From positions 2,476 to 66,475 of the IMG/VR virus record IMGVR_UViG_3300044998_000296: DNA of 64,000 bases; one strand, given 5' to 3'. The notes below the pieces were generated by a model, which made no database searches, was not told the origin of the DNA, and saw only the letters and a program-made list of their open reading frames with translations. The stretch's first letter is position 1, and the number at the start of each line of letters is the position of its first letter. The translations under genes and the position numbers were made by a program. This stretch comes from a virus. Shown here piece after piece: positions 2,648 through 50,394 of the stretch.

Positions 2648-4180
2648 ATGAGCAAACCAACCTTAGATCAGGCTCCCCGGCGCGACGCGCACCTGTCTGC
2701 CGGGGAGAAAATCAGCCAAGCCCTTCGGTGGGTCGGGCGCAAGGAGCCCATTGCGGTTCCGACCGTTCTGACCCGCTGGGAAGTCTTGGAGGACCGCTCC
2801 TGCCCCACTCTCAGCACCAACGGCAAGGTCTTGAAATACAACCCCGACTTCGTGGATCGTCTGAGCTTCAACGCGACCAAGGCCATCGTTCTGCATGAAG
2901 TTGGGCACGTCCTCAGTCAGCACCAACATCGTCGCCAAGGGCGCGACCATCGGGATTACAATATCGCCGCCGATCTGGCTTTGAATTGCCTCTTGAATCG
3001 AGGCTACCGGGCCGCTTTCAACGGAGACTTCGGGGCTCTCTATGCAGAGTTGATTGATCCGTCCGCCTTTGCGTCGGGTTGTTTCGTTGGGGCGGGTTCT
3101 TTTGCGGACCTGCCCCCGAACCTCGACGCGGAAGCCTACTATGAGCTGCTCAAGCAAAAAGCGAGTGAGAAGGAGCAAAACCAAGGACAAAACTTCGGAC
3201 AAAACTTCGGACAAAACTCCGGACAAAACCGAGGCGAAGAAGGCCCGGATTGTAGTGGTGATGGTGGCCGGGACTCTGACCAAGATTGTAGCGGTGAGGG
3301 GCTATACCCCGACCCCGCCCCCGACCAAGTGCCAGACGATGGTCAAGCTTGTGGCGGTAAAGGGCGAGACCGAGGACAAATTTTCGGACAAGGTCACGGT
3401 CCAATCGGCGGGAGTTTCGCTCAACTTTTTGACTGCTCCCCGGCGACCGGGGACATCGAAGACTCACCAACCCCGGAGTCCGAGCATGAAGATGGGCAAT
3501 CCATCCTTCTGGAAACTTTGCTCAACCATGAAGCCGCCGACAAATACAGCCCTCTTGGGCTCGGGGCGATTATTTCGGGAGTCCGCGATCAACTTTTCGG
3601 GGACTACGAACTGGCCGCTGCCATCAACTGGCGGGCCGTGCTTGAAGAGTTTCTGGCCAACGCTCACGCGGGACAACCCAGCTATGAGCGCATCAATCGC
3701 CGCCTGCACAGTCTGGCCGAGTCGCAGGGTATCATCCTTCCGACCGATTACAGTCGCAACAAAACCAACGGTGCGGTGCTGGTTGATACCAGTGGAAGCA
3801 TGGGAGACACGGATTGCGCCCAAGCCTTGGCGCACTTGGGGAAAATCCTCGCCTTGTTTCCCGATTCTACCGTCAACTTGGTCCAGTGCGACACCGAAGT
3901 CCACTGTTCAGAGGAATACACGGGCGGTGATTTTCCTCCGCAGAATTGGGCTGGGTGGTGCGGTCGGGGTGGAACCGACCTTAGCCCGGGCTTCCGTTTC
4001 ATTCGGCAACAGGGGGAATCCTTCGACTGGTGCATCGTCATTACCGACGGGGAGTTCATTCGTGACGGGCTTGTGGACCCCGGAGTTCCAACGCTGTGGG
4101 TTCTAACTCGCCCCGGCTACTGGGCCGACAAACCTTTCCCTTTTGGTCGCGTGGTTTCTATCCGCGCCGCCAAGAATTAA
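2648..4180 (+). CDS. Predicted metallopeptidase + VWA domain protein (DUF2201-like), partner of AAA ATPase
   Basis: HEVGH zincin motif, NIAADLALN, low-complexity linker, VWA MIDAS DTSGSM, GRGGTD and VITDG. Confidence 0.85.
   Translation: MSKPTLDQAPRRDAHLSAGEKISQALRWVGRKEPIAVPTVLTRWEVLEDRSCPTLSTNGKVLKYNPDFVDRLSFNATKAIVLHEVGHVLSQHQHRRQGRDHRDYNIAADLALNCLLNRGYRAAFNGDFGALYAELIDPSAFASGCFVGAGSFADLPPNLDAEAYYELLKQKASEKEQNQGQNFGQNFGQNSGQNRGEEGPDCSGDGGRDSDQDCSGEGLYPDPAPDQVPDDGQACGGKGRDRGQIFGQGHGPIGGSFAQLFDCSPATGDIEDSPTPESEHEDGQSILLETLLNHEAADKYSPLGLGAIISGVRDQLFGDYELAAAINWRAVLEEFLANAHAGQPSYERINRRLHSLAESQGIILPTDYSRNKTNGAVLVDTSGSMGDTDCAQALAHLGKILALFPDSTVNLVQCDTEVHCSEEYTGGDFPPQNWAGWCGRGGTDLSPGFRFIRQQGESFDWCIVITDGEFIRDGLVDPGVPTLWVLTRPGYWADKPFPFGRVVSIRAAKN
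3181..3230 (+). repeat. 12-bp tandem repeat (ggacaaaacttc) encoding GQNF/GQNS
   Basis: About four in-frame units in the linker of the VWA gene. Confidence 0.8.
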
Positions 4181-4205
4181 ACCAACCGACACACACACAG
4201 AAAAT

Positions 4206-4523
4206 ATGACTCTAATGTTAGAAACTGATGCTTATGACCCCACTGAAAAGGGCCGACCTTGGGCCGCCAAGGTCACTTTTGAAACACTCTCCGGAGAGTT
4301 CCATTGGGGCGACTTTGTGGGCAACTGCGGGGAGCCCGGGCTCCGCGTCCTGCCCAACGTGGAGCCCGGGGACATCATCGCCCTCGGTCAAAAAGACTGG
4401 GCCGAGCCTCATCTTGGGCAGCCCACCTTCCATGTCTTGAACAGCGACGGAACCCTCACCCCGTTTCCGGGGCGAAAGGATGCCTACCTATACTGGCTTC
4501 GCACCAACTCAAATCCAAACTAA
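4206..4523 (+). CDS. hypothetical protein
   Basis: ATG after AC-rich leader; 'RPWAAKV...GDIIALGQKD' resembles small phage proteins. Confidence 0.6.
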   Translation: MTLMLETDAYDPTEKGRPWAAKVTFETLSGEFHWGDFVGNCGEPGLRVLPNVEPGDIIALGQKDWAEPHLGQPTFHVLNSDGTLTPFPGRKDAYLYWLRTNSNPN

Positions 4524-4530
4524 AACTCCT

Positions 4531-4743
4531 ATGATAAATCAAATAAAGCGTAACATCCGCCGATACCGGGCCGCCTTGTGCGCCCGACGCCAAGCGACCG
4601 AAGCCTTCCGTCGTCGCCGCGACCTAGCCAGACACCGCTCGGAAGAAATCCAGCGCATTGCCGAGTTGGAACGCCGCGCCCGGGGAGCCAGGCTCTATGC
4701 TGCTTGGTGCTTCCCGGCTATAGAAAAAGGAGGTCGCCTGTGA
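4531..4743 (+). CDS. hypothetical basic protein
   Basis: ctcctATG start; stop overlaps the next GTG. Confidence 0.5.
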   Translation: MINQIKRNIRRYRAALCARRQATEAFRRRRDLARHRSEEIQRIAELERRARGARLYAAWCFPAIEKGGRL

Positions 4744-4925
4744 GCACGCAATTTCTCAACGCCCGAGCCGTCCGCCAGTATGCTTTGGACTACGCCGCCA
4801 AGAACAAGTTCCACAAGTTCGAGCGGGTCAGTCCGGAGTTTGTCACCAAGATCGACGGCATTGTCCGTTCCGCCATAGCCAAAGCGGTTCAGGCACAGCC
4901 TTCCGTTGGTAAAACGATTCGCTAA
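4740..4925 (+). CDS. hypothetical small protein
   Basis: GTGA coupling with the upstream ORF; ends 'PSVGKTIR'. Confidence 0.55.
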   Translation: MSTQFLNARAVRQYALDYAAKNKFHKFERVSPEFVTKIDGIVRSAIAKAVQAQPSVGKTIR

Positions 4926-4931
4926 AAACCT

Positions 4932-5477
4932 ATGCCCGATTGCACATCTTTCCCAGTTAAGGCCCCGCCCTTCCCCGAGGTTCGTTTGTCGGCTGCGCCC
5001 CTGTTCCCCGGCTACGAGTATTCCTTGTGGCTTCGGTCTGGGGGCCAACCCTACGCTCTTTTTTACGCTCCTGATGGTCGGCGGTTGAATCCGTTGCCCG
5101 GGGGCACGGCTATTCCATGGCCTCCGTATTCCGAGTGTTCTTTGGTTTTACGGAAACGGTTTCGCGGGGCTGCCGACCGAGCCCTAGTTGAACTGCAAAA
5201 ATTATTGAACGCTCAGCGGAGTTCGGTGTCATACCTTCAACCTCACCTTCAACCCCTAATCCCAACTAAAAATATGCCCAATAAACTTTACTTCGACCAC
5301 GAGATAAAAGCCCTGGAACGCGCCCGTTACTGGTCCGCGTTTTTGAGTGGGGCTCTCGTTGCCGCGACTTTGTGCCTGCTGCTGGTGTTTGCTTACGCCT
5401 TCTGCTATGCCACCAAGCAGACGCACCCATTCATCCAAGCCCAGGAGGAGAGCCAAGGGCGGCGCGTTGCTTTTTAA
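4932..5477 (+). CDS. hypothetical protein with C-terminal transmembrane segment
   Basis: aacctATG start; hydrophobic stretch AFLSGALVAATLCLLLVFAYAF; a second start at about 5274 is possible. Confidence 0.45.
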   Translation: MPDCTSFPVKAPPFPEVRLSAAPLFPGYEYSLWLRSGGQPYALFYAPDGRRLNPLPGGTAIPWPPYSECSLVLRKRFRGAADRALVELQKLLNAQRSSVSYLQPHLQPLIPTKNMPNKLYFDHEIKALERARYWSAFLSGALVAATLCLLLVFAYAFCYATKQTHPFIQAQEESQGRRVAF

Positions 5478-5499
5478 CGCGGTCACACCCATAAAACCT

Positions 5500-5700
5500 A
5501 TGAAAAACACAGAACGGGCTGGGATTGGCTCGATGCCAGTATTCTCAGTTATACTTCCCGATGGCCGTAAAATTTGCGGCCTAACTAGGCATGAGGCCGT
5601 AACGGGGTTGGCGTGGCTGCCAACGGGCTCCCGAATTGATCCTCCAATTCCTCCATGTAACCCCGCCGCCCTGAATTTGCTTGACGCACTATGCAAATGA
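5500..5700 (+). CDS. hypothetical protein
   Basis: aaacctATG start typical of this genome. Confidence 0.45.
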   Translation: MKNTERAGIGSMPVFSVILPDGRKICGLTRHEAVTGLAWLPTGSRIDPPIPPCNPAALNLLDALCK

Positions 5701-5732
5701 TAGGACGCCTGCCCAGCTTGCGGAAATACTCC

Positions 5733-5831
5733 GCAGAACGCACAAGTTGACCTATGACTACCGCGCCAACAGACTCCGCAATCACTGAAACCGCCGACGC
5801 GGTGGGCATTAGGTCCAGCGACTTGTTCGCC
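5733..5831 (-). mobile_element. attC-like recombination site A1 (complete)
   Basis: + strand: gcagAAC|gcacaa|gttgacc|tatgactaccgcg ... cgcggtgggcatta|ggtccagc|gactt|GTTcgcc; 7/8-bp L boxes, 6/5-nt spacers, extrahelical bases. Confidence 0.8.
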
Positions 5832-6410
5832 ATTTCTCGGGTGTGGTGTATGCCGTCGCCTCTGACCTTCTCGATGAAGCCAATCCGCGCCTTCGTGGAA
5901 CGCTGGCTCCGTCCGGTGTCGGTGGACTGCTTTGCCCGGGACTGCCAACTGGCAGACATCACGAACGACCTGAACCCCGCGACCAAGGCAATGCACCACA
6001 TGGACGTGCTCGACTTCGCGGAATGGCTGGGCCGCGAAGGAGTCCGCCCGTCCTGCATCTTGTTCGATCCGCCATATAGCCCGCGCCAGGCGGCAGACTG
6101 CTATGAGGCGGCAGGGGTGGACCCGAAAACGCTGGACGCCGTGAAACGCCGGAAGGGAAACGCATGGCAAAGGACTAAGAACTGGAAGGAGGAACGCGAT
6201 GCGTTGGCCCGGATACAAGGGCCGGGTGACGTGGTGCTGTCCTTCGGGTGGGATTCCTGCGGGATGGGCAAGAAGCGCGGATACGAACTGGCGGAGGTGC
6301 TGCTGGTCTGTCACGGAGCCTGCCACAACGATACGATCTGCATTGCGGAAAGGCGCGTTGCAGATATGGCGAACGACCAAGGTCAGCCACGGCGGGAGGA
6401 AAACCTATGA
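5754..6410 (+). CDS. DNA amino-methyltransferase (N6-adenine type), cassette-borne
   Basis: Motif I-like VSVDCFA, catalytic FDPPYS, and C-terminal HG..HNDTI. Starts inside site A1 and stops inside site A2. Confidence 0.8.
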   Translation: MTTAPTDSAITETADAVGIRSSDLFAISRVWCMPSPLTFSMKPIRAFVERWLRPVSVDCFARDCQLADITNDLNPATKAMHHMDVLDFAEWLGREGVRPSCILFDPPYSPRQAADCYEAAGVDPKTLDAVKRRKGNAWQRTKNWKEERDALARIQGPGDVVLSFGWDSCGMGKKRGYELAEVLLVCHGACHNDTICIAERRVADMANDQGQPRREENL

Positions 6411-6459
6411 AAATCAAAAGTGACGCGATCCCGCCGTTGGATGCACCGCCTTGTTCGGA
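6368..6459 (-). mobile_element. attC-like site A2 (complete)
   Basis: ggcgAAC|gaccaa|ggtcagc|cacggcggga ... tcccgccgttg|gatgcacc|gcctt|GTTcgga; loop holds an ATGA stop/start overlap at 6407-6410. Confidence 0.8.
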
Positions 6460-6491
6460 ATCTTCTTCGACGGACCACCGAGGAATCCTTG

Positions 6492-6590
6492 TCGGAAACA
6501 GGGGTCAGGTATCGGCACCCGCAAGCGGTGCGCCCGATTCTAACCCAGCGCGCGGTGCGGGTGACGATTAGCTGGACTGGCTTGTTAGCT
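6492..6590 (-). mobile_element. attC-like site A3 (left end degenerate)
   Basis: ggtcagg|tatcggcacccgca ... tgcgggtgacgatta|gctggact|ggctt|GTTagct; AAC is not at the canonical distance on the left. Confidence 0.65.
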
Positions 6591-6598
6591 GAATTTTT

Positions 6599-6814
6599 AT
6601 GGAAACAACGATGAAACTAAAAATCCGAAAAGGCCAGCGCATGTTGGTCAAATGGCGCGATGACTGCGGAAAAATTCACATCCGGGAAGGGATTGTGGTG
6701 GATTGCGAGCGGGATTTTGTAAAAATCGAACACCGATTTTTCGGAATCCTCCGCTGGAGCAGATGGTATCCTATGAAAGATGATCGCCACAATGCAGAGA
6801 TTATTTTCAGCTAA
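6599..6814 (+). CDS. hypothetical small beta-rich protein, cassette-borne
   Basis: Lies between A3 and A4; its TAA is part of the agcTAAc box. Confidence 0.6.
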   Translation: METTMKLKIRKGQRMLVKWRDDCGKIHIREGIVVDCERDFVKIEHRFFGILRWSRWYPMKDDRHNAEIIFS

Positions 6815-6838
6815 CGTCCGCGATCACGGGCCGCTAGG
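6809..6838 (-). mobile_element. attC-like half-site A4 (left arm only)
   Basis: agctAAC|gtccgc|gatcacg, similar to the left arm at 50286; no partner arm downstream. Confidence 0.55.
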
Positions 6839-6858
6839 AGCGAAGAAAGTATACGAAA

Positions 6859-7152
6859 ATGGATAAGTTCAAATGTCAAGAATGTGGAAAGGTATTCGAT
6901 CCCGACCCCGCTGCAATGGTGGAAGTCGAAATAAGTCCCGACCTCGTGCTCGAAAATGAGGCGGATGAAATGGCGGATGCGGGCAAGTGCCTGACCGAAG
7001 ATGATCTAAGAAACGCGGAGGCCGAACAGCTGCAAGCTTGGGGGCTGAGCGAAAAAGATCGTGACGCAATGCTCAGTGGTGAAGGTGTTGTAATAGGAGG
7101 CATGTGCATATGCTTGGAATGTCAAGATAGGCTCGCGGAGGAACAATCATGA
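6859..7152 (+). CDS. hypothetical acidic protein with two CxxC motifs
   Basis: FKCQECGK ... ICLEC; ends just before site A5. Confidence 0.65.
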   Translation: MDKFKCQECGKVFDPDPAAMVEVEISPDLVLENEADEMADAGKCLTEDDLRNAEAEQLQAWGLSEKDRDAMLSGEGVVIGGMCICLECQDRLAEEQS

Positions 7153-7156
7153 TTTT

Positions 7157-7278
7157 TCCGAACGGCCAAGTCACCGAATCCCGCCCGTGATCGCGCTGCG
7201 CTGCAATGTTGACGGACGAAAAACCCCGCCGGTGCGAGCACGCGGCGGGGCGGGATTCGGTGGACTGGATTGTTGGCC
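7157..7278 (-). mobile_element. attC-like site A5 (complete)
   Basis: tccgAAC|ggcca|agtcacc|gaatcccgccc ... gggcgggattc|ggtggact|ggatt|GTTggcc. Confidence 0.8.
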
Positions 7279-7279
7279 G

Positions 7280-7624
7280 TTACGCTCTATCCGAGCAAAA
7301 TTTGTGGTGCGCGGCAAACGCCCGGCTCCGCTCGACCCATCCTGCAACATATTTGACCGCCGCCGGAGTATTCCCCTGAGCATAACTGTTACCCGAGCGG
7401 GTTTGGCCGTCCTGAATATAAAAAACGACATGGGCAAATTTGGTGCCGCGCTGCCAGACCTGCGAGTAAATCCGGTTAGCGATGCATGTCTCCTCGACCA
7501 TGGTGATTGGCATTTCAGGCCGCCCGCCCAACGCTCCGTTTTTGCGAGCGGCGGCGGCTTTGGCTGGGGTGGTGATGCTGCCGAGCGTGGCGGCAGCCTG
7601 ACTTGTGGTGTTTGTGGTGCTCAT
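7280..7624 (-). CDS. hypothetical protein (K..AAR.NG..GGRP motif), only reverse gene in the array
   Basis: MSTTNTTSQAAATLGSITTPAKAAAARKNGALGGRP; TAA abuts site A5. Confidence 0.65.
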   Translation of the reverse strand: MSTTNTTSQAAATLGSITTPAKAAAARKNGALGGRPEMPITMVEETCIANRIYSQVWQRGTKFAHVVFYIQDGQTRSGNSYAQGNTPAAVKYVAGWVERSRAFAAHHKFCSDRA

Positions 7625-7633
7625 TGCGCAATC

Positions 7634-7661
7634 AAAATAACCCAACGCTGGGATATGTCAA
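7634..7661 (-). promoter_or_regulatory. sigma70-like promoter for the reverse cassette gene
   Basis: TTGACA-16 nt-TATTTT on the - strand, 9 nt before ATG; spacer holds the near-palindrome cccaacgctggg. Confidence 0.55.
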
Positions 7662-7695
7662 CAGAAAAAATGCAGGGGAACAAAATTATTTATTC

Positions 7696-7793
7696 GATCA
7701 ACGCCCAAGGTGAGGCACAGCCTCCCGCCAAAAAGCTATGAACAAACCAAAAGACCTAACGGGAGGCTGTTGTCCTCCACCGATTTGTTCAAA
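7696..7793 (-). mobile_element. attC-like site A6 (complete)
   Basis: gatcAAC|gcccaa|ggtgagg|cacagcctcccg ... cgggaggctgttgt|cctccacc|gattt|GTTcaaa; ATGA in loop at 7738-7741. Confidence 0.8.
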
Positions 7794-8006
7794 GGATTTT
7801 GTGATGCCATTTGGGAAACCACCCACGTAAATGGATACTATCACCCATCTCAGCAACGATGCGTGATCTGCGGAGAATATCGGCACAAGATTTATTGCTC
7901 GCAGTGGCCCCGATGGAGAAAGGGCAAGCACCCTGCAAGCGAAGGCTGCGGGACATATTCTTCTGCGAACGTAAAAGCCACCAGTTCCGCCCCAACTACT
8001 ACTTGA
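7710..8006 (+). CDS. hypothetical Cys-containing protein, possibly degenerate
   Basis: CVICGE motif; runs from A6 into A7. The loop ATG at 7738 is out of frame with it, so the start is uncertain. Confidence 0.4.
   Translation: MRHSLPPKSYEQTKRPNGRLLSSTDLFKGFCDAIWETTHVNGYYHPSQQRCVICGEYRHKIYCSQWPRWRKGKHPASEGCGTYSSANVKATSSAPTTT
7964..7995 (-). mobile_element. attC-like half-site A7 (left arm only)
   Basis: tgcgAAC|gtaaaa|gccacca; upstream ORF reads through AAC as Asn as at other sites; no right arm seen. Confidence 0.45.
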
Positions 8007-8775: not shown

Positions 8776-11700
8776 TTAGTCCTCTAACGCGGCCTTTTCC
8801 CAGTGCCAGCGGTCTCTGGTTTTGATTGCCCGTGACTTGTTCCCCCGGGACACCCCCATTTCGTCCTCCATTTGGCTCCAGGCAATCTGGGCCGCAGCCG
8901 TGCCAAACTTCCCGAGGATTTCTTTGGCAATCTCGCGTTGCATAGGTCCGTCTTTGGCCAGCTCGGTCAGGTAGCGGACTTGGTCCGGGTCTAAAAATTC
9001 GCGCATGGTCTCGCCGTAGAGTTCATTATAGCGGCGGGTTTCTTCGGGCTTGGCTGGGCGGACCCCCATTCGGGTAGAATCATCCGCGATGACTTCCCGG
9101 CGCGGGGGTGGGACGACCAACCCGGCTTCCGCTAAAGGCCCCAAGATCGGGTGGAAGTTGGTTGTCGAGAAGAACCGTCCGAAGAGAATGTCCTCGGTGC
9201 GAAGTTCCACAGGTTCGGCCAGAACATTGATGGCGGGTTTGTTGGCCAGCATTTGACCCATAGGCAAAGCCGCCATAGTGGCTGCTAAAGGGCCTGAGGT
9301 CGAATCGTAGCGTTGTTTGGAGACTAGCTCTTCGACCATCTTCGTCATCCCCGGGTTGAGGAATGGTCCCACGGCACTTCGGTATTGATTAAGCAGCAAG
9401 CGTCCCCCTTCTTCGGTTTCTCCTTTCGAGTAAGCCGATACGGTTTCCAGCATATTGAACAAGCCGCTCATCATTTCACGGTCCAGCAGCAAGGCCGCCC
9501 CGCTAAGGAAGCCCCCTCCCCAGATTGCCGCCGCCTCGTTGGGTTCGTAATCCCCGTAGAGAACTTTGTCTGAAATAGCCCCGGCAAAGGTCAGGGCCAG
9601 CGAAACCCCTGGAAGGTCCTTGTAAGGAATCCAGACAGCCGAGTCACCGAAACCAATACGGATATGCTGCGGCTTGAAAATCCCGGCTTCGCGCAAGGCT
9701 CGGCGGGTGCGCAGGTCTTGATGGCCTTCCCCGTAAATCCTAATGAAAGGCTCGCGTCCTTCCTCCCGGTCTCGAAAAGCCGCTGCTACCAAGGCCGCCA
9801 AGGCTCCCCATACGGCGGTTCCTGCCGCTGCCCGCACCAAGGCCGCGTAGTATTCCGGGCTGCCCTTTTCGTAGGTCTGGAAGTTCTCGGCAAATTGTTT
9901 GAACCCGGGGAGAGCTTTGGCCAAAGCGGACGATAGGGTTCCTTGGCCTCCCCGCAAAGCCCGGACAAATCCATAAGGGCCGAACTCCAGCCCGTAGTTT
10001 AACAGGTTCGACAGCGTCCGCATGAAGCTTCCATACTGTGCGCCTGCCGGACCCCCGAAGCCGAGAGCCAATTTTCCCCACGACATGGCCAGCAATCCGA
10101 GAACTCCGTAGGCTTCCCCGTTGAAGGTTGCCTTGGCTGCAAAGTCCCGGACCAAGACTTCGTTGGCGTGGCCTCCGAGAAGCTCACGCTCGACGAGTTG
10201 TTCCAAACGGCGGGAGCGCAAGACCCGGTGCGACGGAGTTCCTTTGATTCCAAATTGCCCCTCGGCATCTTCGTTTGCCACTACTTGCTTGGCCTGTTCC
10301 ACGATTGCCGCCATAACCTCCTCGGTTAGTTTGGGCTGCGTCCCGAGAGCCTCGGCAGTTCTGCGAATCAGCAGCATCTTGGTGCTGGCTCCAATCCCGC
10401 TGTTGATCGCGTCGGAAGCCATCATAAAGCGGGCAACCAGCTTGCGTCCGGCCAGGTAATTATCGCGCAACCGGGCCAAGTCTTTTGCCGCCAATGATCC
10501 TTTGCCTTGCAGGGCATGGACCAAAGCCAGCGTAGGATTGCGGAACTTCGACAGCTCGTAGCTTGCGAGCATCTGGACCCCGGCTCCGGCTATGCCCGGT
10601 AATCCTTTAGTCTGCAAAGCATCCATGAAGTTTTCCCCGGCTTGAGCCACGGCGGGTTCAAAGGTGAACGCTTCCAGCTCAGGCAGGGTTTCTAGCTTGT
10701 CGGTCTTAAAGCGAGACATCCCTTTGCCCACTGCCGACCAAGTTTCATCAAAGGCGCGACGGCTTGACCCATCCAAGTTCTTTCCAAAGGCCCGTCTCAG
10801 CCCGCCAACAATGTCCCCGAACGCCCCGTAAGCCTGCGCCCCCGGGACTCCCTGCCGCTGCATATACAAAGCGTGGCCCGCAGCAGAAAAGGCCGACTCC
10901 ATCTGCACTGCGGCAAACGAAGCTATGGCGTTGACCCCTTGAGTGCGGAGCCCCTGCAACACCCCGGCTTGCCAGACCAGCCCACTGATCTTCCACCAGC
11001 GAAACGCTTTGGAGAATCCCTTGGTTTCATCGAAGTGGGCCTTGAAAATTTTGAGCATCAATCGTTGCTCGGCTTCCCCTCGCTGAATCGAATTGTCCGA
11101 GAGAGCTTGCAAAGCCTGCGCGTCTCGCTCGATTTCGTCCGCTGTTTCCTTGTTGTAAGTGGGCAGTCCGTAGAAGGGAGCTAGCGCATTGTAAACGTCG
11201 GGCTTCTGGAAAGCCCCCATGTTGATGATCCCAAGCAGACGGTCCATGGTTTGCCGATGGGCCAAGACCTTGCGAAGCTCGATAGCTTTCTCGTCATTAC
11301 GTTTGGCAATGTCCCGGACCATCCGAGCCAACCCGGCTTCCGCTGCCTTGGAGACTTCATCCCGGTAAACCGCCACGGCAGCCGCAGCAATCTTGTCGCG
11401 TTGTTCTTGGCTGAGATGCGGGGCGGCGATGGCCAGATTGTTGGCAAAACTTTTCTCGGTCATTTCGCGGCTTTGCAAAGAGCGGCGGACTTCCTCCGTC
11501 AAGATCACGTTATGCAGCACGGCCTTGCGCAGTTTCTTGGCTCCTTCGGTATCAAAAATGTAGTCCGGATTCCATAGGCTCCGGTCGTTGACAAAGAGAC
11601 CGCTGTAAGGAGTGTCGGCATCGTTGCCTTCCATCAATACGTGGTCGAAGATGATCTTGGAAATTTCCATGATCGAGTCGGGGGCGGCCTCATCGGCTAC

Positions 11701-14700
11701 CTCGGCCCATAGAGCCAGAGCTTTTTGCATGTCAGACTGGGCAGACCCCTCGGCCTCGGCCCGTGCTTCCACCCGGCCACCTTGCAGCCGGGCTTCCAAG
11801 ACTCCATTGATCTGTCGTTGAGCCAGAGCCCGAGCCCGTTCTTCCACTGATCTCAAGGCGCGTTCTTTGGCGGCGGTATTCGGCACGGCTTCAAATTTAC
11901 GCAGCAGGTTATCGAAGACCTGAGCCACAATGACTTCCGTGGCGTGTTCCACGATTTGCACGTTAGTCATCCCCGCCTTTGCATCGGACAAAGCTTTGGA
12001 CAGGGCCGAGTTGGCTCGCACGCCTCGTTCGCTGGCCGTCTTGGGCAGGAAGCGACGGCTGGCCATTTCGATGACTCGGAGCATCCGCTCGTAAGTATTC
12101 CGGCTACCCGTGTCGTGGGCTCGTTCCAACTCGCCCATGATTTCTTTGACGGCTGGTTTGGCTCCCAGCGTTTCCGCTTGTCCTTTGATGGCCGGGTTCG
12201 TGTATTGCCGTCTCCAAGTGATCGGGTCAAAGAGATGCGAGACCATGCGGACATAGTTTAGCTCACTTCCCGCCATGCTGGACAGTTCGGCAAGCTGCGC
12301 GAGCATGGACGAAAGCGTTTCGTTGTAGAGATCGGCCAACATTTGTGCGCTGGCCCGGTCGGATTGGCTCAAAGAACTATCGGCGGCGTTGGCCAAAGCT
12401 TGAACGCGGCGGCTGGCTTCTTTGACTCGTTTAACGATATGCCCCAACGTAACAACTCGGTCGCCTCCGGTGAAACTGTGCTCCTGCATAGCTGCACGGA
12501 ACAGGGTATCATAGGAGAGGGGATCATCGGACGCCAGGGTTGGGTGAGCCTTGAAGTAGTCTTCGATGTAAGCGGTGGCGCGTTCGTTGATCGCGGCTTG
12601 CGTGTCCGGGATATACTGCACCGTATCCAAAGCTTTGGTGACGGGTTCCCATTCAGGCAGCGAGCGCAGGCGAGAGAACGCCGTGGTATTCTTGGCTGCC
12701 GCCCGATTGTAAAGGGTTGCCGTGGAAGCCGGGAACTGCGCTTGCACGGGTGCGCTGAAACGAATGTCGTTGCTATTCGAGTTAAACCGCTGCGAAAGCG
12801 GGATGACGTTGCCTTGCTCGTCGTAGGTTACAGGGTCGGGCAGTTTAACTCGCACGCTTTCACCGTTCGGTAAGACTGCTGAGACCGATCCTGCATCCTC
12901 GCCTTCGTTGATGTAGAACGCGCCTTTTTTACGCTTAATTTTACGATTTGCAGCATTATCAGAGATCGGGGAATTCCTTGTGTTGGTCATGCCTCCAACA
13001 ATTAGGACAGGACGCAACCAAGGTTTCCATTTAGGATTTACCAATACGCCATTCCCAAGGGTCGGCATTTTCTTTGGATAATAGTTTTCCGATGGAGCAT
13101 CCACGTTGTATCCAGTAAGTCGATATTTTCCAAATTTCCCCGTATTGATCAATTCTTTACCGGCCAGCAAAGTATCCCCATATTCCCGAGTTCCGTCCCA
13201 CCCCCTACCGTCCGCAGGTATTCCAATTCGAGCTTCCAGAGCCTCCATAGCCGCTTGCTTCGTCCCGACATGAAGCCCTGTTACCCCTCCCCGCAAGTCT
13301 CCGCTTGGAGTTCCATGCCAAAATGCGCCGATTGCCGCCAGTTTTTCATCCACCATGCGCTGCAACTCCTCGCGGTTTGCTTCGGGGTCTTTGGCAAGCT
13401 CAAGATAGCGAGCGTCTTGAGAGGTCTTTGCGCTCGCGCTGTATTGTAGAATCGGGGCATCCTTGTCCAAGGTGCGTTGATCGTCCGTAAGCTTGGTGAA
13501 CGCCTCCACCACGGCTTCCCCCGTAATCGCTTCATACAAGGAAGCCTCGTAAGAGTTTGCCAGGACAGGGGGAGCCGAACGGCTGAAACGAATGTCGTTG
13601 CTATCCGAGTTAAACCGCTGCGAAAGCGGGATGACGTTGCCTTGCTCGTCGTAGGTAACAGGATCGGCCAACTTTGCTTGCGATGATTTGAAAAAAACAA
13701 ACACGTCGCTTGGCGTATCATCGTCCATAGCGTCACGAGTGTTTTCCATAATAACTCCATCGTGGCCGCCAGCTATTGCTTCCTGTATTAGCTCTGAATA
13801 GCTTTTATCTTTGAAAGAACCCCCCTCGTAATCGTAAATTAAAGGGTTTTCGAACTTCAAATACAAATCGTGAACCACGCTTGACTTGAGTTTTTCTTGT
13901 CGAGCTTTTTCATATTTGGCAAGAACTTCGTCTAACTGCTTTTGGGCTTCTTCTATTTTGGCATCTTTTTCAGCTTGAGCTGCTTCAAGAGCATCCTCTT
14001 CATCCTCAAACACGGTTTCTTTTTTGCCAGTTTCATAGGGGTCATAGGGATCGGCTTCCCATTCATACGGTGATCCCCATTCATCATACGCTTTCAGTTT
14101 TCCAACAAACCCATTTTGTTCTGGATCAAACTCGGCAAACACTTCAATAGCCTCCGCTAATTCAAGTGCCCTTTCTGCATTTTCTAAGTTAAACCCAAGC
14201 GGACCAGTGTATCCAGCGTTGGCTTTTTCCCTCGCTGTCATACGGTATTGTTCGGCAACCTCTTTTTTGTTGGTTGCAAAAAAACCAAGCAATGCGGAAT
14301 TCGCGCCTGTTCTTTCTCCTTTTCTAAGAGGATCAAAAACCCAAAATGGTTTGTTAGGAGAGCCGTGATATGCTTTTTCAGTGTATCCAGCTCTTTTCGC
14401 CGTCGCATCCACCATGCGCTGCAACTCCTCGCGGTTTGCTTCGGGGTCTTTGGCAAGCTCAAGATAGCGAGCGTCTTTCGGCGTTGCTACGCTCGCGCTG
14501 AGACGAATGTCGTTGCTACCTTCATTTGCCCATTGCGACGGAGGAATCAAGTTGCCGTTCTCGTCGCGGTTAAGCGGCTCGGCGGATTTGATTTGGTTGG
14601 GGTTGAAAACGGCATAGACCGTTGCTGGTCCGCCAAAGTCAAACATATTGGTGAACTTCACAAAGGACTTGCCTTCGCGTTTTGCACGGGAAATCACGCT

Positions 14701-17700
14701 GGCACGTTTTGAGTGTGCCAATCCTATTCTTGCAGCGGGGATTCCCTTGAAGTCGGAGGATGCTGGCTTATCACCGGGCTTCAGCATTACAGAGATGACA
14801 GTAGGCGACGGTTTTTCTCCTTTTGTCGGCGCAAGATTGGCGAAATTCTTCGCCATGTTTTTGTCTTCCGTGAACCAGAAGGCTTTGGCTGCTGTTCCCG
14901 TAGCTCCTTGGTTGGATACGTCAAATTCCGTGAACGTCCCGTTGGGTGTCCCATGATACGCCTTCACATCATACCCCGCCTCCCTAAGCACCTTCTCCCG
15001 CATCTCCTTCAACTCGGCATACGCTTCCGGGTTCTCGGCTTTCCACGCTTCAAGGTCGGTGTCCGGTGTGATCAATGCCGTCAGTTCGCTGAAACGAGTG
15101 TCTTGAGAACGGCTGATGTTGGGGTTTTCCAACGACAAGGCCGCTCTCCAATCACCAAGGTTTTCGGGCAACAGGGCCGCTTTTTGCACGGCAAACGGAC
15201 GCTCGGCGGGGGGTATGTTCCGCTTCGATCCGTCTTCGTTGTAATTCTGCGGCCCGAAATTGACCCATGAGTTTTGTCCCCTTGTTTCCGTGGTCAAAGC
15301 ACGCTGCGCCAAAGGGGAAAACATCTGGCTGTGCTTGATCCAGGCGTTTTCCTCTCCCCGAGGGCCGAACTGATAATCTTCGGCGGCGTGTCCGAACAAA
15401 TCGTGAATTGCCCGGAGCTTGTCGTTCATGGTCAGCCCATTCTCATCGGGCTGGTTCAAGAACGGGTGGGGTTCTCCTCCGGTAAAGAAATACAGCCGCT
15501 TGTTTTCCCGAACGTCGCGGACCATTTCCCGAGAACTGGCGTATGGCTGCCCCTCTTGGTTCCATTCGAGGAACGTAATGCCAAGCTCTTGCGTGGCAAA
15601 ATCCCACTGTTGTTGGATTTCTTCGGCCAGCTTGGCATACGCTTCCCGTGTCTCAGCCGAATCGTCAACGACGGGCAGGGATTCATACGCAGCGGCGATT
15701 TGCCGCGCCAAGGTTTCATTTACGGGAGCGTAGTGCTCCTCAATGGGGGGAGCTAACTTGTAGCGTTCGTTGTATCTTCGGACCCCTTCTCGGACGGCGG
15801 GGTTGGGTTCGGCGTTGGGCCGTAGGCTTTGTCTTGGCGTTCTGGACGGGGCTTCCATCCCTTCGGTGGACGGTGAAAGCCGTATTGGTCCTCCGATTCG
15901 GTTGAGTTCTCCTTCGAGGGTTTGATCTGCGAAGGTCTGAAGGGAATCAAAACTCCCGCTCCTTTCGGAAAGCAGCGTTCCCCTGGGTGGGGTTTTCTCC
16001 AAATTACTTTGCCCATAACGTGTGTTTTCTAATGGTTTGTTGGTTGCCGTTTGTTCAGTGGTGACTAATTCGGAACGGAAGTTGAACCCCGCCGCTTCTA
16101 ACTGGTAGTCCTTATCTTCGACCACTTGGGGAAGGATTTGTTCAATTCCTTTTTGGAAATCTTCATTTGTTACCTGCTCGCTCTTGTCCGTCTTAAACTG
16201 CGTGAAGTTCCCAAAGACCAGGGCATCTTCCATTCCCGTAAATCCTTCCGCTGCGGGAAAAGCGGAAGAGACGGCGTTAAAAACCTCGGCTCGTTCTTCA
16301 AAGGTAAGGGGTCTTGAGGGAATGACCTTCACAAAGAACCCTTGGTCCCCGTTGGTGGTGTCTTCTTCGTCAAAGACAACCACCGAGTTTTGCCGCAACA
16401 GCACCCCTGCCGCTATGGAGAACTCCTTGCGTTGGTCAAAAGATAGTTCGCCGGGGAAACTAACGATCATGGTTGGATTCGTTTTGCCCCAGAACCCACC
16501 AACGGCTATCTCGATTTCCGGAGCTGGCAGCCCCATGTCTTCAGCCAGTTTGTTCAGAACGGCGGGACCGACCCCACGGGTCGCTTCAAACTTCTGCTCG
16601 TCGGAAAGCTGGTTCCATTTTTCCACGGCCACCTTGTCTGTCGGGTTCGGGGCGACTTCGATGTTTGTCCCGGCAGCCGCGCTTAGACGCACGCCGCCAT
16701 CAAACAGGGCTTCCAGTTGCTCGATTTGGTTTTGCACGTCCCCCGCCGCTTTGTAATCCCCCGCAGCAATGAGACGCGCCCGCTTCTCCGCAAGGGCCTC
16801 TGCTTGCTCGATAATTTTTTCTTGAACATTTTCCGACAAAGTGTTGTCTATTGCTTCAGTCCGACTTTCAGGAAGGGGCTCTATGCCTTGAGGGCTCGGA
16901 GGGCTGGTGGCTTGTCCACCTTCTGCTTCCCTGTTTGCTTGCGCGTATCCAGCCTGATTGTCGGACTTCTTTTTTCTTGGGGCATTGTCTCCAATTCCGA
17001 CGACTGTGGCGGCAAGTGCCCGGCCCCTTTCCGGATTGGTGTCCGAGTATTGCGTCTCAAATAGGTTCCCGTTTTTACGCACTTCGACAAAGTGCCAACG
17101 CTGCCCGGTAGGAGAAGAAGGGTCCGTGTAAAGCTTGGCGTAAACCCACATAGGAATAACCGCCCGCACTCCGCTATCCTCGATTACCATGTCCCGCTCG
17201 CCCACGAAGTCTGCTTGACGTAAAGTCTGTGGGATCAAGCGGGCCGAGATGATTTTATTTGGCTTGGGAGTAACCCGGTCGTCTTCGGTTAAAGCGTGGA
17301 TTGCGCGGGCTTTTAATTGCGCCCGGACCCCATCCCACCGTTCGGTAGGGTTTCTTCGTCCCAGCTTGGTGGCGGTTGGTTCATCTGGCGAGTTAAGGTT
17401 CACTGTCCGCTTACCACGGGCGGGTAGTTGTCGAAAAGCTGGGTCGGAAATTTCATCCCCCAAAACCCGCAACGCTTCGTTGTATTGCCCCGGTGCGAAG
17501 AAACCCCTTGAAGGAATCTCTGGGATTGCGTTGGCCAAGACATTACGGAGCGTTTGTCCCTGGGCTTTGGCGAAAGGAATTGACACACTGAGGCGGGCGG
17601 CCTCTTCGTTCAATCTTTCTTCCCGGGCAGCCCGCGCCAAGGATTCCACCAGCGCGGGTTCGGCTACAGCCGTTTCGCCAAGGAACTCCCGCAGGAGCAC

Positions 17701-20700
17701 AGCGTCGTTGCCCCGAGCCCCGCCGCGCAGTTCGCGGAATTCTTTCATCCGGCCCAGCAGGTATTCCTGTTGCTCCGGGTCCGCTGATACTTCCTCGAAT
17801 GTTCTGCCGTTGAAATCCAAGAGGACATTGGCCTCAAGGAAAGCTCTTTGCATGGCTTGGTCGGTGAAGATTTCCGACTCCGAGGAGAGTCGCAGCCCTT
17901 CTTCCATGGCGCGTTGCAGCACGGAATCAAGGGCCACATTGCGTCCGGTCAACAGGCGGGAAATCAAATTGATAACCCGCTGCCAGATAGTCGAACTGCG
18001 TCCTTGAATCTCGGTAGTCACTCCGGCCAAGAAATCTTGCAGGGGTTTGTGGTTGATCGCTTCTTGGATAAACTCATGCAGCCCCCCTTCGTCATTGATC
18101 CCCCGGAAATTCCGATCCGAGTTGAGAATCCGCACGGCTTCGGCCCGGCTGACCTCGGCTCCTTCCATGATCTCCCGCAGCTTGGCATCACGGGCTTCCA
18201 GTCGCAGGGCATCCAGAATCCGTAAACCCTCCAAGTCTTCTCGGGTCAGTTGGTTGACGTTGCCACTAAGGTAAGCGGAAATTTTTGAGTCCAAGAGCGG
18301 GTGGACTGTTTCGTGGAGCACGGTCTGGGCCAGCAGACTTCCGCCCTCCACTCCGGGGCGTCCGGCCAACAAGCCCGGAGATACTTGAAGGACGTAGGAG
18401 CCATCGGGGCGACGGAACGAAGCCCCCTGCATAAGCGTTTCCGGTATGGCCCAGTTGAAGTTGAGCGATATGCGTGTGTTCTCGGGACGCCCGATCAAGT
18501 CCCCGATTAGCCGCACCCCTTGATTAAACTCCTGCTTCCGCATGAACTCCACGGGATCGTTTCCGTAGGTTTCGCGTAGACGGCGGTTGATTTCCCGTAA
18601 GGTTGGGGGGAACCCCGGGTCGTTTTCCAAGGCTATCAAGTCCTCGGGGCTCATCCGGGCCAGCCACGATTGGGCCGAAGCCTGTGGGACGTTCTGTTCG
18701 CGCATGGTCCGTTCGATCAGCTCGCTCAGGATCAGGCGGTTCATTTCGTTACCCCGGCTTTCTGCCAGTTGGAGTTGCAACAGAGTTTCCAGGCTGGGGT
18801 TTTCCGCAAGCTGTTGTTGTATGGACCCCGCCGCTGCCGTGCGGAGCATAAAGGTTTCCAGTCCGGCCAAATTCTCGGCGGCCAATACAGCGGGCGAAGC
18901 ATTACCCGCGTAAGACTCAGCCAGTTCGCGGGGGACGCTGGCCCGAAAGGTTTCGTTGAAAGCTTTCAGAAGCTCCGCACTCCGGGGTTGCAGCATCTTT
19001 TCAATAGCCGCAACCAATTCCGGTCGGGAGTTGGCCAAAGCCAATGTGCCCGGGTCTTGGTCGCCCACCAAAGCCCCGGCTGTTTCGGGACCAACCACGG
19101 CCCGCAAAGCTTTCTCCAACACAGACCGAAGGGCCTTCTCCGTAGCCGATGTTACAACCAGAGGAGATTGCGTATCGCTGACCAGTTGATTGGGCCGAAA
19201 CTGCACCGACAAGTTTTCCAACACCACGTTGATGGTGTCCCGGGTGTCTTCCACGACCCGACGACGCGAGCGGGAATCCGAGAACGAGTTATCGCGGAAA
19301 GCGGGTTGTTCGGTTGTTCCTTGCGGGAGTTCTAGCGCATCGGGGTCGGAGCCTTCCTCGCGTTCCAGGATAGTTTCTAGCGGGCGGTCATCCAAATTGG
19401 CGTCCCCTCGCTCGGCTTCCCGCCGCGCCCAGTCGTTGGCCCACCCACGGCCCTGTCGGTCAAGAATTTGCCACGAAACCACAGAACCGTTGCGAGTCTT
19501 TCGTTTGACGACACTGCCCGTCTCGTCAAAGTTTTTCAACAAGGCTCCCATGAGCGTTTCTTTTCCGGTGCTACGTTCGGGAGTGATCCGAGTCTCAAGC
19601 TCGGGAGAGAACAAATCGTTCAAGATCGCTTCGGGATTCTTGGCGGTGTAAGCCGTGTCCCCGTTTTTAATCGCGGAAATGACGCGGCCCGCTTTCTTCA
19701 CCGCCGCATTAACCTGCGCTTCAACGATTACATCCCACTCGGCTGGCGAGGTTTCTTGCGGTTTCCGCGCTTGGAGGTTCGCTTCAAGTCCTTGCCGGAA
19801 AACATCCAGGTATCCTCGCTCGGAGACAGGGGCCGGGTTTGTGCGGCTGCGTTCTGGTGTTTGTTGATTGCGTCGAGGAACCGTTGGGTTCTGGGTGACA
19901 GGCGGGGTTTGACGGCGTTGGGCATTGGTTGGCTTGGGAAGTTCAGCAAAAAAGCGGTCAATACTTTCCTGGCTTTCACCCCGTTCGATAAGCAGAGCGC
20001 GAATACGGGCTTGGGCCGCAGGATCGTTGGCCAGTTGTTGACGCAGTTCATTGACCCGAGCTGTTGCTGTTGGGTCTCCCGGGGGTGGGGTGTCCTGCTC
20101 GGTCGTGGGGGTGGGCGTTTGCGTGACACCTTCGATAGCAGACGGAGCTTCCGTCGTGGAGGTGGGCGTTTGCGTGACACCTTCGGTAACTGCTGCGGCT
20201 TCCGTCGTTGGGGGCGTCTGCTCGGTGGGGAGATTCTCGGATTGTGGCGGGGGCTCGGGGGCAGGGTTGATCGCGGATACCAAGGCTTCATCGCGTCCAC
20301 GCAACCAGGCAGCCACTCCTTCCGGGGAGAAATCTTGCAGGGCTTCCGGGTCGCCTTCAACCCGGGGAGTCCCCTCCGGGGTGAACATCCCTTCGTAGAG
20401 CGCGGAGACTTGTTCCGGGGAACGAAAGTTAATGTCAGACAGGGTATCGGACTCCAGTTCCACAGCCCTTTGGGCAATACGAAGCCGCATCATTTCCAAG
20501 GGAATCGCTCCACCCTCTCCGCTTTGCGTGTATTCTTTGGAAGCTTCAAAGAGAGCTGCTTCGGCCTCGGCCAACTTGGTTAGCGCGGCTTGCTCGCGGG
20601 CTTTGGCCAGCTCGGATACCGCCTGCTTCACTTCATTTCCACCGAGTTTTTCGGCAGCGTCCATCTGCATCTGGGTAGCCGCTTTGGCTACACGGACTTC

Positions 20701-43357: not shown

Positions 43358-44533
43358 GTGAGCACAATACTCGAAAAAATCACCCAAGCTGTCAATGCCC
43401 GCGAAAGCATCACCTTGCGAGTGGGTCGCCAAAAAATCGGCCTTTACTGCGCTGAAAGATCGGGCAACCCCTACTGGACGCTGTCTTGGTATGAAGGAGC
43501 CCAGCGTTGTCGAAAAACGGCGACAGAACCCGCCAAAGCTATCCGCATGACGGAAGCCGTCGCGGAATCTGTGGCCACCGTAGGTCGGGCAACTCCCTCA
43601 GTTTTAGGCCAACCCAGCGAAGTGGCTTCCATCCCGCTAAACGAACTGTTGGAGTTTTACAAAAAGCACCATCCCGATTTGAAGGAAACCTTCAACGCCC
43701 CAACGGTTTCGGAAATCCGAGACGAGTTTCTGTCCGCCGCAAAAAACGCGGGGCGAAGCCAACGCCATCTGCAAAGCCTACGGGCGCATCTCAACAAGTT
43801 TTGCCTAGCCTGCCCCAAGAAAATTTCTCAAATTAGTGTTGAAGATATTAACCCTTTTCTCCAACAATTCGCGGCCCTGAAAACCCGGCTCAATTATCGC
43901 ATCACCCTGATCTCCTTTTTCCGATTTGCTCAAAGACGCGGATTTCTGCCTACTGACCGCTTGACTGCCGCCGAACTTAGCGACAAACCATCCGTGCGCC
44001 CAACCGAGCCCGAAGTGTTTACCTCCGAAGAATTTGCCCGCCTCTTAAAACATTGCGACAACAAAAAAATCCGGGCCTTTTTAGTGTTCGGTGGACTGTG
44101 TGGTCTGCGGTCTGCGGAGATCGCCCGCCTAAGATGGGAAAACGTCCGCGAAGACCACATCATCTTGGGGGCGGCGATAACCAAGACAGCCCGCCGCAGA
44201 GTAGCCGAGATTCCCGGGAACGCGGCGGCTTGGTTGGAGGCTTTGAGGGAAACAAGCGGTCCGGTGTCCTATCTATCCCCAAACCAACTTTACAAAAAAC
44301 TCGACGCATTGGCCGAAGCTGCCGGAGTTTCCTGGAAACCGAACGCTCTGAGACACAGCTTCGCCAGCTACCATTTAGAATTTCACCGGGACCCGCCCCG
44401 GACATCCAAGACAGCGGGACACAGCCTACGAATGTTGGAGACCGTTTACGCGAAATTGGTTTCCCGAAACGACGCCATTGCGTGGTTCTCGATCTTCCCC
44501 ATCCAGCAACAAAATACAAGCCGAAATCTATGA
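43358..44533 (+). CDS. int: tyrosine integrase
   Basis: GLRSAEIARL (R), KT (K), NALRHSFASY, AGHS and VYA catalytic pattern. Confidence 0.9.
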   Translation: MSTILEKITQAVNARESITLRVGRQKIGLYCAERSGNPYWTLSWYEGAQRCRKTATEPAKAIRMTEAVAESVATVGRATPSVLGQPSEVASIPLNELLEFYKKHHPDLKETFNAPTVSEIRDEFLSAAKNAGRSQRHLQSLRAHLNKFCLACPKKISQISVEDINPFLQQFAALKTRLNYRITLISFFRFAQRRGFLPTDRLTAAELSDKPSVRPTEPEVFTSEEFARLLKHCDNKKIRAFLVFGGLCGLRSAEIARLRWENVREDHIILGAAITKTARRRVAEIPGNAAAWLEALRETSGPVSYLSPNQLYKKLDALAEAAGVSWKPNALRHSFASYHLEFHRDPPRTSKTAGHSLRMLETVYAKLVSRNDAIAWFSIFPIQQQNTSRNL

Positions 44534-49153: not shown

Positions 49154-49202
49154 ACCCTTGGGGGTGTGGGGCGTTGCCTCGCACCCCCTTATTTTCACAG
49201 CT

Positions 49203-49931
49203 ATGACTTCTTCAACCGACAGCACTTCAAACATACCAATCGCAAAAAATTCGGAACGCCTCTACCTGGCCGGACCTATGACCGGGAAACCGTTGTTCAA
49301 CTTCCCGGAATTTGACCGAGTCCGCGATCTCTGGAAACTCTTCGGGTGGACCGTTGTATCCCCGGCAGACATGAACCGGGAAAACGGATTTGACCCGTCG
49401 AACCCCTATTTGGAACCCCCAACTCTCACCAAAGAATTTCAGGAAGAAGCCCTGCGGCGGGACGTGGAAGCCCTCCTTGACGTGAACGCCGTGGTCATGC
49501 TGGACGGCTGGCAACACTCCACCGGAGCCCGCGCCGAGTATTGCATCGCTCGCTGGCGTCACATCCCGGTATATGACGAACGGGGGAACTTTATCCCTTC
49601 TCTATTTGACGGCTTGAAACCAGCCAAAGACGACGACGACCCCAAAGCCGTGGAAGGCTCCAAGAAATGCCCCATGGACCTGCTGCCCCCGATTGCCCTC
49701 TTACATACTGCCTGGGTGCTGGGTCACGGAGCCGAGAAATACGGGCCTTGGAACTGGAGAACCAGCGGTATCAAACAAAGCACCTACGTTGCCGCAATGC
49801 TTCGCCACATCATGGCCATGCACAGCGGAGCCTGGGAAGACGCAGATAGCGGCATCCCTCACGCCGCCCACATCGCCGCCTCCTGTGCAATTCTCATGGA
49901 CGCAGAAATCGCCGGAAAATTAGAAAGATGA
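49203..49931 (+). CDS. DUF4406 (nucleoside deoxyribosyltransferase-like) fused to DUF5664 dATP/dGTP diphosphohydrolase-like domain
   Basis: LYLAGPMTG...FNFPEF...LDGWQHSTGARAE; then K.PMDLLP..GAEKYGPWNWR...RH...DSGIPHAAH. Confidence 0.75.
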   Translation: MTSSTDSTSNIPIAKNSERLYLAGPMTGKPLFNFPEFDRVRDLWKLFGWTVVSPADMNRENGFDPSNPYLEPPTLTKEFQEEALRRDVEALLDVNAVVMLDGWQHSTGARAEYCIARWRHIPVYDERGNFIPSLFDGLKPAKDDDDPKAVEGSKKCPMDLLPPIALLHTAWVLGHGAEKYGPWNWRTSGIKQSTYVAAMLRHIMAMHSGAWEDADSGIPHAAHIAASCAILMDAEIAGKLER

Positions 49932-49960
49932 ACAATAAACCAGACGCAATAATAGCAGAG

Positions 49961-49993
49961 GGTGGGGCTGTTCGCTCCAGTGACTTGTTCGGC
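49961..49993 (-). mobile_element. attC-like half-site B1 (right arm only)
   Basis: gctgttc|gctccagt|gactt|GTTcggc; close to the A1 right arm, and both translate RSSDLF. Confidence 0.6.
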
Positions 49994-50111
49994 AGCTTTC
50001 GAGCAGAGAGCTATGGGAGGACGATGAATATGTAATAACCTGCAAGGCTGGCGTGATAGACCACACAATAGACAAACGGACGGCGCAATGGCCGCAACGG
50101 GAGGAAAAACT

Positions 50112-50387: not shown

Positions 50388-50394
50388 TAATTTT

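Follow-up and report, generated by a model that had tools for sequence, protein, structure and literature searches.

A 64,000-nt stretch of viral DNA, called the window below (bases 2476-66475 of the 66.5-kb IMG/VR virus record IMGVR_UViG_3300044998_000296, whose completeness rating is about 90%), contains two groups of small open reading frames (ORFs) set between hairpin-forming repeats that resemble the attC sites of integron gene cassettes. Are these repeats ordinary phage hairpins, or do they record the recombination of cassettes in a phage genome? The initial annotation favored the second answer and took the repeats as a footprint of integron-type cassette recombination. Four results support that reading: a covariance-model link between the sites and integron integrase (intI) genes, a permutation test, circularization in silico, and a contig, L235, in which one unit has other neighbors. 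The window is very probably a phage genome with two attC clusters and no integron integrase, that is, a cluster of attC sites lacking an integron integrase (CALIN). Cluster A (5731-7795) has six sites, A1 to A6, and cluster B (about 49925-50972) has three, B1 to B3. The small accessory genes between them, including one for a DNA methyltransferase, most likely arrived as mobile cassettes.

The site family and its link to integron integrases

The repeats share a 17-nt left-end motif, AACGTCCGYGATSACSG, which occurs without mismatch at 6813, 50290 and 50854; allowing up to three mismatches gives six matches against 1.06 expected, a number reached in none of 100 shuffles. Right-end motifs are likewise repeated (5815 and 49977; 6574 and 7262). 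Scans with the left motif found the phage record G001 (complete, 67 kb, bounded by direct terminal repeats; five copies), the viral contigs L007, L011 and L030, and at least four bacterial assemblies (Terrimicrobiaceae, Chthoniobacterales, an unclassified Verrucomicrobia bacterium and Rubripirellula). Few viral loci were reached through protein relatives, the queries being the DUF2201 protein, the DNA polymerase and the methyltransferase. Among the matches listed, most of those from motif scans of the viral and genome collections are single, about the number estimated for chance, and a matching right half accompanies 10 of the 126 motif occurrences. Two simple identities for the repeats were rejected. 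A high-copy REP-like repeat does not fit, as the bacterial genomes carry just 1-3 exact copies of the motif, and a known RNA family does not fit either, as the window and seven loci gave no Rfam match at gathering scores.

Fourteen full sites, which are hairpins of 100-170 nt, could be aligned, giving a consensus of 27 pairs of which 15 show compensatory changes. Each site begins with an outer box ending in AAC, followed by three unpaired nucleotides, an L box of 10-11 bp, a variable stem-loop and the complementary L box, in which one or two bases are bulged; on the right side come three more unpaired nucleotides and then an outer box starting with GTT. The 3-nt spacers (left mostly GTC; right ATT, TCT or TTT) are unpaired both in the consensus and in single folds. 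Two columns of the alignment are bulged, both always on the 3' arm of the model strand, and in canonical attC sites the bulges lie on the 3' arm of the bottom strand. The bulge-bearing model strand is the intI strand in all four intI-linked arrays (4/4); since intI is divergent from the cassette genes, the model strand corresponds to the attC bottom strand. When seven complete sites were folded as single-stranded DNA, six had z scores of -3.8 to -7.0 and one had -2.5.

A covariance model (R1) was built from the 14 full sites, and all bit scores and E-values given for sites are from this model. Run over the whole window with filters off, it returned five sites at E<1e-3 (A1, A2, A5, A6 and B2), all on the + strand and four of them within 2.1 kb. 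In G001, whose structural module is collinear with that of the window at 24-41% amino acid identity, the model found 16 matches, every one on the + strand; 14 have E<=0.004, and just one is among the model's training sites. Sites thus occur about once per 4 kb in this relative. One G001 site is 87% identical to a site in the Chthoniobacterales assembly. Across 42 model-aligned sites, AAC is present in 40 and GTT in 38. The bacterial genome G006 has 15 model matches, many on short contigs, as broken arrays would give. Among 121 sampled genomes from the phylum of the Chthoniobacterales assembly, nine have a match at E<=1e-5.

What ties this family to integrons is its position. Three of the five bacterial genomes searched have integron integrases above the cut-off of the integron integrase model TIGR02249 (265 bits), and sites lie just upstream of intI on the same strand in G004:C50 (391.9 bits), G006:C38 (416.9) and G007:C108 (434). 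On another contig, G004:C124, at least five sites adjoin intI fragments. The family adjoins intI in genomes of Verrucomicrobiota and Planctomycetota. The association extends to viral DNA. L011 encodes a full IntI (364.1 bits), with cassette ORF and site in the same arrangement as at the bacterial loci; in the window's viral relative L007, a C-terminal remnant of IntI follows 1.6 kb downstream of the site. L011 itself is a 49-kb IMG/VR viral contig, putatively a phage or else a prophage call that takes in host DNA, and its single cassette ORF and single attC of the family lie at 3356-5889.

Cross-gene complementarity, circles in silico and a cassette with other neighbors

Because the phage + strand corresponds to the attC bottom strand, the cut is assigned to AA|C in each left end. 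A mobile unit consists accordingly of a site with its downstream gene, which corrects the initial annotation. A cassette would then be one site body with the DNA that follows it downstream as far as the AA in the next left box, and in the excised circle its ends, GTTxxxx and xxxxAA, would pair and so close the hairpin. As the ends of the circle pair, the right end of an integrated site should match the left end of the next site and not its own left end.

Such matches had been noted at three places in the window, and all three were borne out: GTTCGCCATTTCT (5825-5837) against AGATATGGCGAAC (6362-6374) at 12/13, GTTAGCTGAA (6584-6593) against TTCAGCTAAC (6806-6815) at 10/10, and GTTCGCA (50381-50387) against TGCGAAC (50850-50856) at 7/7. 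In terms of boxes, the A2 left box ATGGCGAAC pairs 9/9 with the right box of A1 (12/13 when extended), A3 matches A4 at 10/10, the A5 left box TTTCCGAAC pairs 8/9 with the A2 right box GTTCGGAAT, and B2 matches B3 at 7/7. One match of 10-13 nt is by itself not beyond chance: the window contains 122 exact 10-nt inverted pairs 100-700 nt apart, against 50 +/- 9 in first-order shuffles. The end matches are significant because the sites form an independently defined family.

We therefore compared pairings over this family. Contiguous complementarity beyond GTT/AAC averaged 3.42 nt between neighbors (n=24), 1.32 nt within a site and 0.94 nt for other pairings, so the earlier remark that outer ends match less well within a site was correct. 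Cross-site complementarity also exceeded that of shuffled pairings, the observed neighbor value being reached in none of 20000 permutations. Phages (3.16 nt, n=19) and bacterial arrays (4.4 nt, n=5) both contribute. The 24 pairs include two far-apart low scorers, which bias the comparison against cassette recombination, and A2-A5 was entered as a neighbor pair, A3 and A4 not yet having been listed then.

Circularization gave a concordant answer. When each site body was joined in silico to the next left flank (n=25), mean folding energy went from -31.1 to -33.6 kcal/mol and outer pairs rose from 3.6 to 5.6 (Wilcoxon p about 0.001-0.002 for the gains); random flanks brought no such improvement (-30.5 kcal/mol, 3.3 outer pairs). 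A1 illustrates this: alone it folds no better than shuffles (z +0.5), and with the A2 left flank its energy goes from -17.4 to -23.2 kcal/mol.

A different complementarity involves A4. Its L box (6819-6831) is 13/13 complementary to 7183-7195 in the A5 loop, spanning the gene for a 97-aa protein, and the latter stretch overlaps A5's own stem by 4 nt. The match may represent what is left of a right arm, or else an attC with a loop enlarged to contain a gene.

Has any such unit been found elsewhere? A 1731-nt metagenome contig, L235, matches window positions 5736-6392 at 89.5% nucleotide identity. Its methyltransferase is 97% identical at the amino acid level, while its flanks are unrelated and have no further match to the window. 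The left breakpoint is the GAAC of A1. Taken together, the breakpoints make the unit site A1 plus the methyltransferase gene plus the A2 end, as the cut at AA|C predicts. The expectation that the same unit would occur with different neighbors thus holds with a boundary at AAC on the left; on the right the boundary is inexact, lying up to 19 nt inside A2. The claim that complementary ends bracket the methyltransferase gene is only approximately right. The ORF as listed (5754-6410) opens inside A1, and its last 12 codons overlap A2. The ATG at 5850 may be the true start, given that homology to phrog_11619 begins only at residue 35. A Pfam search with the methyltransferase gave no match. A homolog with 64% amino acid identity (L236) has one weak site match upstream (16.8 bits).

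Contigs assembled from read runs, all of one sample that may be the source of the window, offer further contexts. Separate contigs match, box to box, just A1, A2, A3 or A6, with unlike flanks, and another matches A5 plus the minus-strand ORF alone, again with unlike flanks. In run X5 a separate contig has a near-identical copy of 7161-7567 (5 differences in 407 nt). A joint from 5829 to 7159 in the same run was considered as an excision product and rejected: a single contig contains it, its shorter side there covers 32 letters, and the letters in the middle are unknown.

Enzyme, gene orientation and rival explanations

At least two attC sites lie close together and no IntI is encoded in the 66.5-kb record, which is the arrangement of a CALIN; a complete integron would have intI beside the array, and the window does not. 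Which enzyme, then, would move the cassettes? The phage cassettes are probably moved by recombination in trans, through a host integron integrase. The host is probably a member of the Verrucomicrobiota or Planctomycetota. Because the window now has no integrase, one formerly carried by the phage lineage would be an alternative source.

Several observations weigh against cassette recombination and should be set out together. The best TIGR02249 scores in the 66.5-kb record are 21.7-29.6 bits, so there is no integron integrase, and G001, which is complete and has 16 sites, has no tyrosine recombinase whatever; the recombining enzyme is for this reason assumed and not seen. The outer boxes, beyond the triplets, do not fit the attC consensus RYYYAAC/GTTRRRY. 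Four sites fail to fold alone (A1, A4, B1 and B3, with z +0.5, +0.8, +1.1 and -0.7), A3 and B3 are weak covariance-model matches, and A4 and B3 lack right halves. Three neighbor pairs are unmatched: A2-A3 (run 0), A5-A6 (run 1) and B1-B2 (run 0 unless one base is skipped). The right breakpoint of L235 is up to 19 nt past A2's AAC and not at it, falling inside the family-conserved L box, and a viral homolog of the methyltransferase (L234, 49% amino acid identity) is without sites. Finally, the window, G001, L030 and L007 have their genes on the attC bottom-strand side, 7280-7645 being the sole window gene oriented as in usual cassettes; at all five bacterial loci examined (5/5), and likewise in L011, genes are on the strand opposite to the bottom strand.

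Some of these points would be met if the sites descend from attC and modules are now swapped through homologous recombination, ordinary or relaxed, at the conserved boxes of 17-30 nt, IntI playing no part. Such swapping would be like that of the promoter-early stem-loop (PeSL) cassettes of T4-type phages, in which intergenic stem-loops with regulatory sequences are shuffled by homology, it is thought via circles; in plastic parts of those genomes, too, small accessory genes are set between repeated stem-loops. L boxes are nearly identical between phages whose structural proteins are 24-41% identical, so that microhomology is on offer; neither the window nor G001 has IntI; the half or truncated sites A4, B1 and B3 resemble products of imprecise events; and the right breakpoint of L235 lies in the L box region. 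Exchange inside site bodies, however, gives no complementary ends flanking genes, whereas the observed ends do match and close the hairpin when joined. The left breakpoint of L235 is at AAC, and the same end pattern is present in bacterial arrays beside intI (n=5). PeSLs are not known to have AAC/GTT boxes, a link to intI or cross-gene complementarity of ends. We regard homologous exchange as an unlikely explanation.

Could the phage hairpins serve mainly in expression, as terminators or in RNA processing or translation control at gene junctions, with mobility a relic? All window sites and all 16 G001 sites are placed on the coding strand. Loops contain a Shine-Dalgarno sequence and the next gene's start codon in A2, in the G001 sites at 10343, 41595 and 42095, and in L030; left halves encode C-terminal tails of the upstream proteins, and T-rich runs follow some right boxes. 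The bottom-strand-side genes and the start codons within hairpin loops are oddities of this phage CALIN. Sites on the non-coding strand at 5/5 bacterial loci nevertheless imply that what is conserved is a function at the DNA level; there is no Rfam match, and a role in expression leaves the cross-gene complementarity and the cassette with other neighbors unexplained. As the main function it seems less likely still than homologous exchange, and as an added role it does not exclude cassette recombination.

As to the loops in G001, the three sites named are close copies of one another (L057 2661-11478; L059 1589-3393). Their loops and 3' arms encode the start of the downstream proteins, whose N-termini are hydrophobic and signal-peptide-like (MKLPSKK...WWIALLALF).

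That the phage's own Xer-like tyrosine recombinase (43358-44533) acts on the sites is very improbable: there is no other recombinase in the genome, its best NCBIfam family is 'site-specific tyrosine recombinase/integron integrase' (56 bits against a cut-off of 220) and a near-copy of the left motif lies at 44141 in its gene, but G001, with its 16 sites, lacks any tyrosine recombinase, the protein falls short of the IntI model (29.6 against 265 bits) and has only the catalytic motif in common with true IntI (BLASTP covers 40 residues only), and the motif at 44141 has no right half. Judged from its sequence, this product is not an integron integrase. The near-copy itself (44141-44157, two mismatches) is probably due to chance.

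Cassette recombination thus remains the explanation that we prefer. A broader proposal can be put forward only tentatively. The lineage of the window, G001, L007 and L030 may regularly shuffle its accessory genes by integron recombination, using phage-adapted, flipped cassettes with starts built into loops and trading with host chromosomal integrons via the host IntI; the remnant in L007 and the integron in L011 would then be traces of an enzyme of its own. If so, the flipped genes would be read by phage transcription.

Other features of the window and comparison with known systems

The sites and genes of both clusters are collected in Table 1 together with the recombinase.

Table 1. Sites, ORFs and recombinase gene of the window (bits and E-values for sites from covariance model R1)
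Feature	Positions	Strand	Remarks
Site A1	5731-5833	+	Full attC-like site; left box CCGCAGAAC, right box GTTCGCCAT; 24.1 bits, E 1.9e-4
DNA methyltransferase cassette gene	5850-6410	+	Possible start (see text); phrog_11619, E 3.4e-35, residues 35-206 of 218-aa frame
Site A2	6366-6461	+	Full attC-like site; left box ATGGCGAAC; 26.0 bits, E 5.8e-5; single-stranded DNA fold z -2.1; GGAGG and ATG (6407) in loop
54-aa ORF	6407-6571	+	Starts within A2 loop; no family match (Pfam, PHROG)
Site A3	6491-6592	+	Divergent full site, A5 type; right box GTTAGCTGAA; right half forms a direct-repeat family together with A1 and A5; 12.6 bits (E 0.017 on 5 kb, 0.22 on whole window); inner hairpin z -2.65
71-aa ORF	6599-6814	+	Between A3 and A4; stop codon within A4 left box; no family match
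Site A4	6807-6846	+	Truncated: canonical left half (TCAGCTAAC GTC CGCGATCACGG), no right half; exact 17-nt motif; nhmmer left-half E 2e-5; 9.3 bits; no hairpin of its own
97-aa ORF	6859-7152	+	Two CxxC pairs; PHROG match marginal only
Site A5	7155-7280	+	Full site; left box TTTCCGAAC; 35.6 bits, E 1.5e-7; single-stranded DNA fold -41 kcal/mol, z -4.5; stem 15/15
121-aa ORF	7280-7645	-	Usual cassette orientation relative to attC; no family match
Site A6	7694-7795	+	Full site; absent from the initial annotation; 24.4 bits, E 1.5e-4
Tyrosine recombinase gene	43358-44533	+	Only one in window; Xer-like; PF00589, 44.5 bits
Site B1	49925-49995	+	Degenerate, right half alone recognizable (CCAGTGACTTGTTCGGCAG); exact right-end motif in common with A1; missed by covariance model; no hairpin
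71-aa ORF	50088-50303	+	Ends within B2 left half
Site B2	50284-50389	+	Most canonical site of window; 76.4 bits (B2 is 1 of the 14 training sequences); single-stranded DNA fold z -4.0; stem 13/13
174-aa ORF	50395-50919	+	Between B2 and B3; last 22 residues from B3 left half; weak DUF5662 match, under cut-off
Site B3	50848-50972	+	Canonical left half and apex; right half decayed within next gene; exact 17-nt motif; 90% identity over 50 nt to a G001 site; 12.8 bits

Elsewhere the window encodes a DNA polymerase, a helicase, a primase-like protein, a MoxR ATPase, a DUF2201/VWA protein and a 4502-aa protein; a PHROG scan of ten large window proteins gained almost no annotation. The 4502-aa protein corresponds to one uninterrupted frame (8776-22284, minus strand, without a stop codon), which is very large for a 66-kb phage. 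A region at 58337-58691 is AT-rich (GC 0.48 in its own 2-kb bin against about 0.56 elsewhere) and dense in inverted repeats of AGGTCTCAACTAAGC, one pair of 39-nt arms being 95% complementary; a replication origin or regulatory region may be located here. The stretch also has a weak attC-model match (16.1 bits) that is probably false. At 49158-49931 a single ORF joins a DUF4406 domain to a dATP/dGTP diphosphohydrolase N-terminal domain (PF18909). The latter domain is known from phages with 2-aminoadenine DNA; a Z-genome was considered and rejected, there being no PurZ-like (adenylosuccinate-synthetase-like) gene in the record.

What do these clusters add? They give sequence-level evidence for integron cassettes entering and passing between phages, beyond the presence of attC-like hairpins, and one cassette has been found with different neighbors and a boundary at the recombination triplet. 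They also widen the range of phage attC clusters, known from a few cultured phages, to uncultivated ones whose hosts are probably Verrucomicrobiota and Planctomycetota. As the site family is nearly letter-identical to intI-linked bacterial sites, the attC type could mark phage hosts. The methyltransferase cassette fits the idea that phages take anti-restriction genes from the cassette pool.

A homogeneous, taxon-typical attC is familiar from Vibrio, with its VCR. Cury et al. 2016 (PMC4889954) define a CALIN as at least two close attC sites with no intI nearby, and the chromosomal integron arrays described there resemble the present sites in having R and L boxes, an unpaired central spacer, extrahelical bases, a variable terminal structure, chimeric attC and high site similarity within a lineage. 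Unlike those arrays, the phage has neither intI nor attI, its arrays are short (six and three sites), the orientation of its ORFs is reversed, and several of its sites are truncated.

Phage CALINs have already been described (Qi, Rajabal, Ghaly, Tetu and Gillings 2023, PMC9892861), and the window adds a further one. In that study, 17 CALINs were found in 10,705 NCBI phage genomes, five DNA methyltransferases are among the phage cassettes, and IntI1 recombined five of six phage attCs tested; action of bacterial IntI in trans was proposed. Section 3.4 quotes 5'-G|TTRRRY-3'. The text of the paper does not mention Verrucomicrobia or Planctomycetes, and 'metagenom' occurs in it once, in the reference list. 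Like those CALINs (PMC9892861), the window carries no fewer than two attC sites with no intI nearby and small accessory genes, a methyltransferase included, between them. It differs in having one conserved site family that is common to intI-linked bacterial sites, in a relative with 16 sites, in genes on the bottom-strand side and in some gene starts placed inside the hairpin loop.

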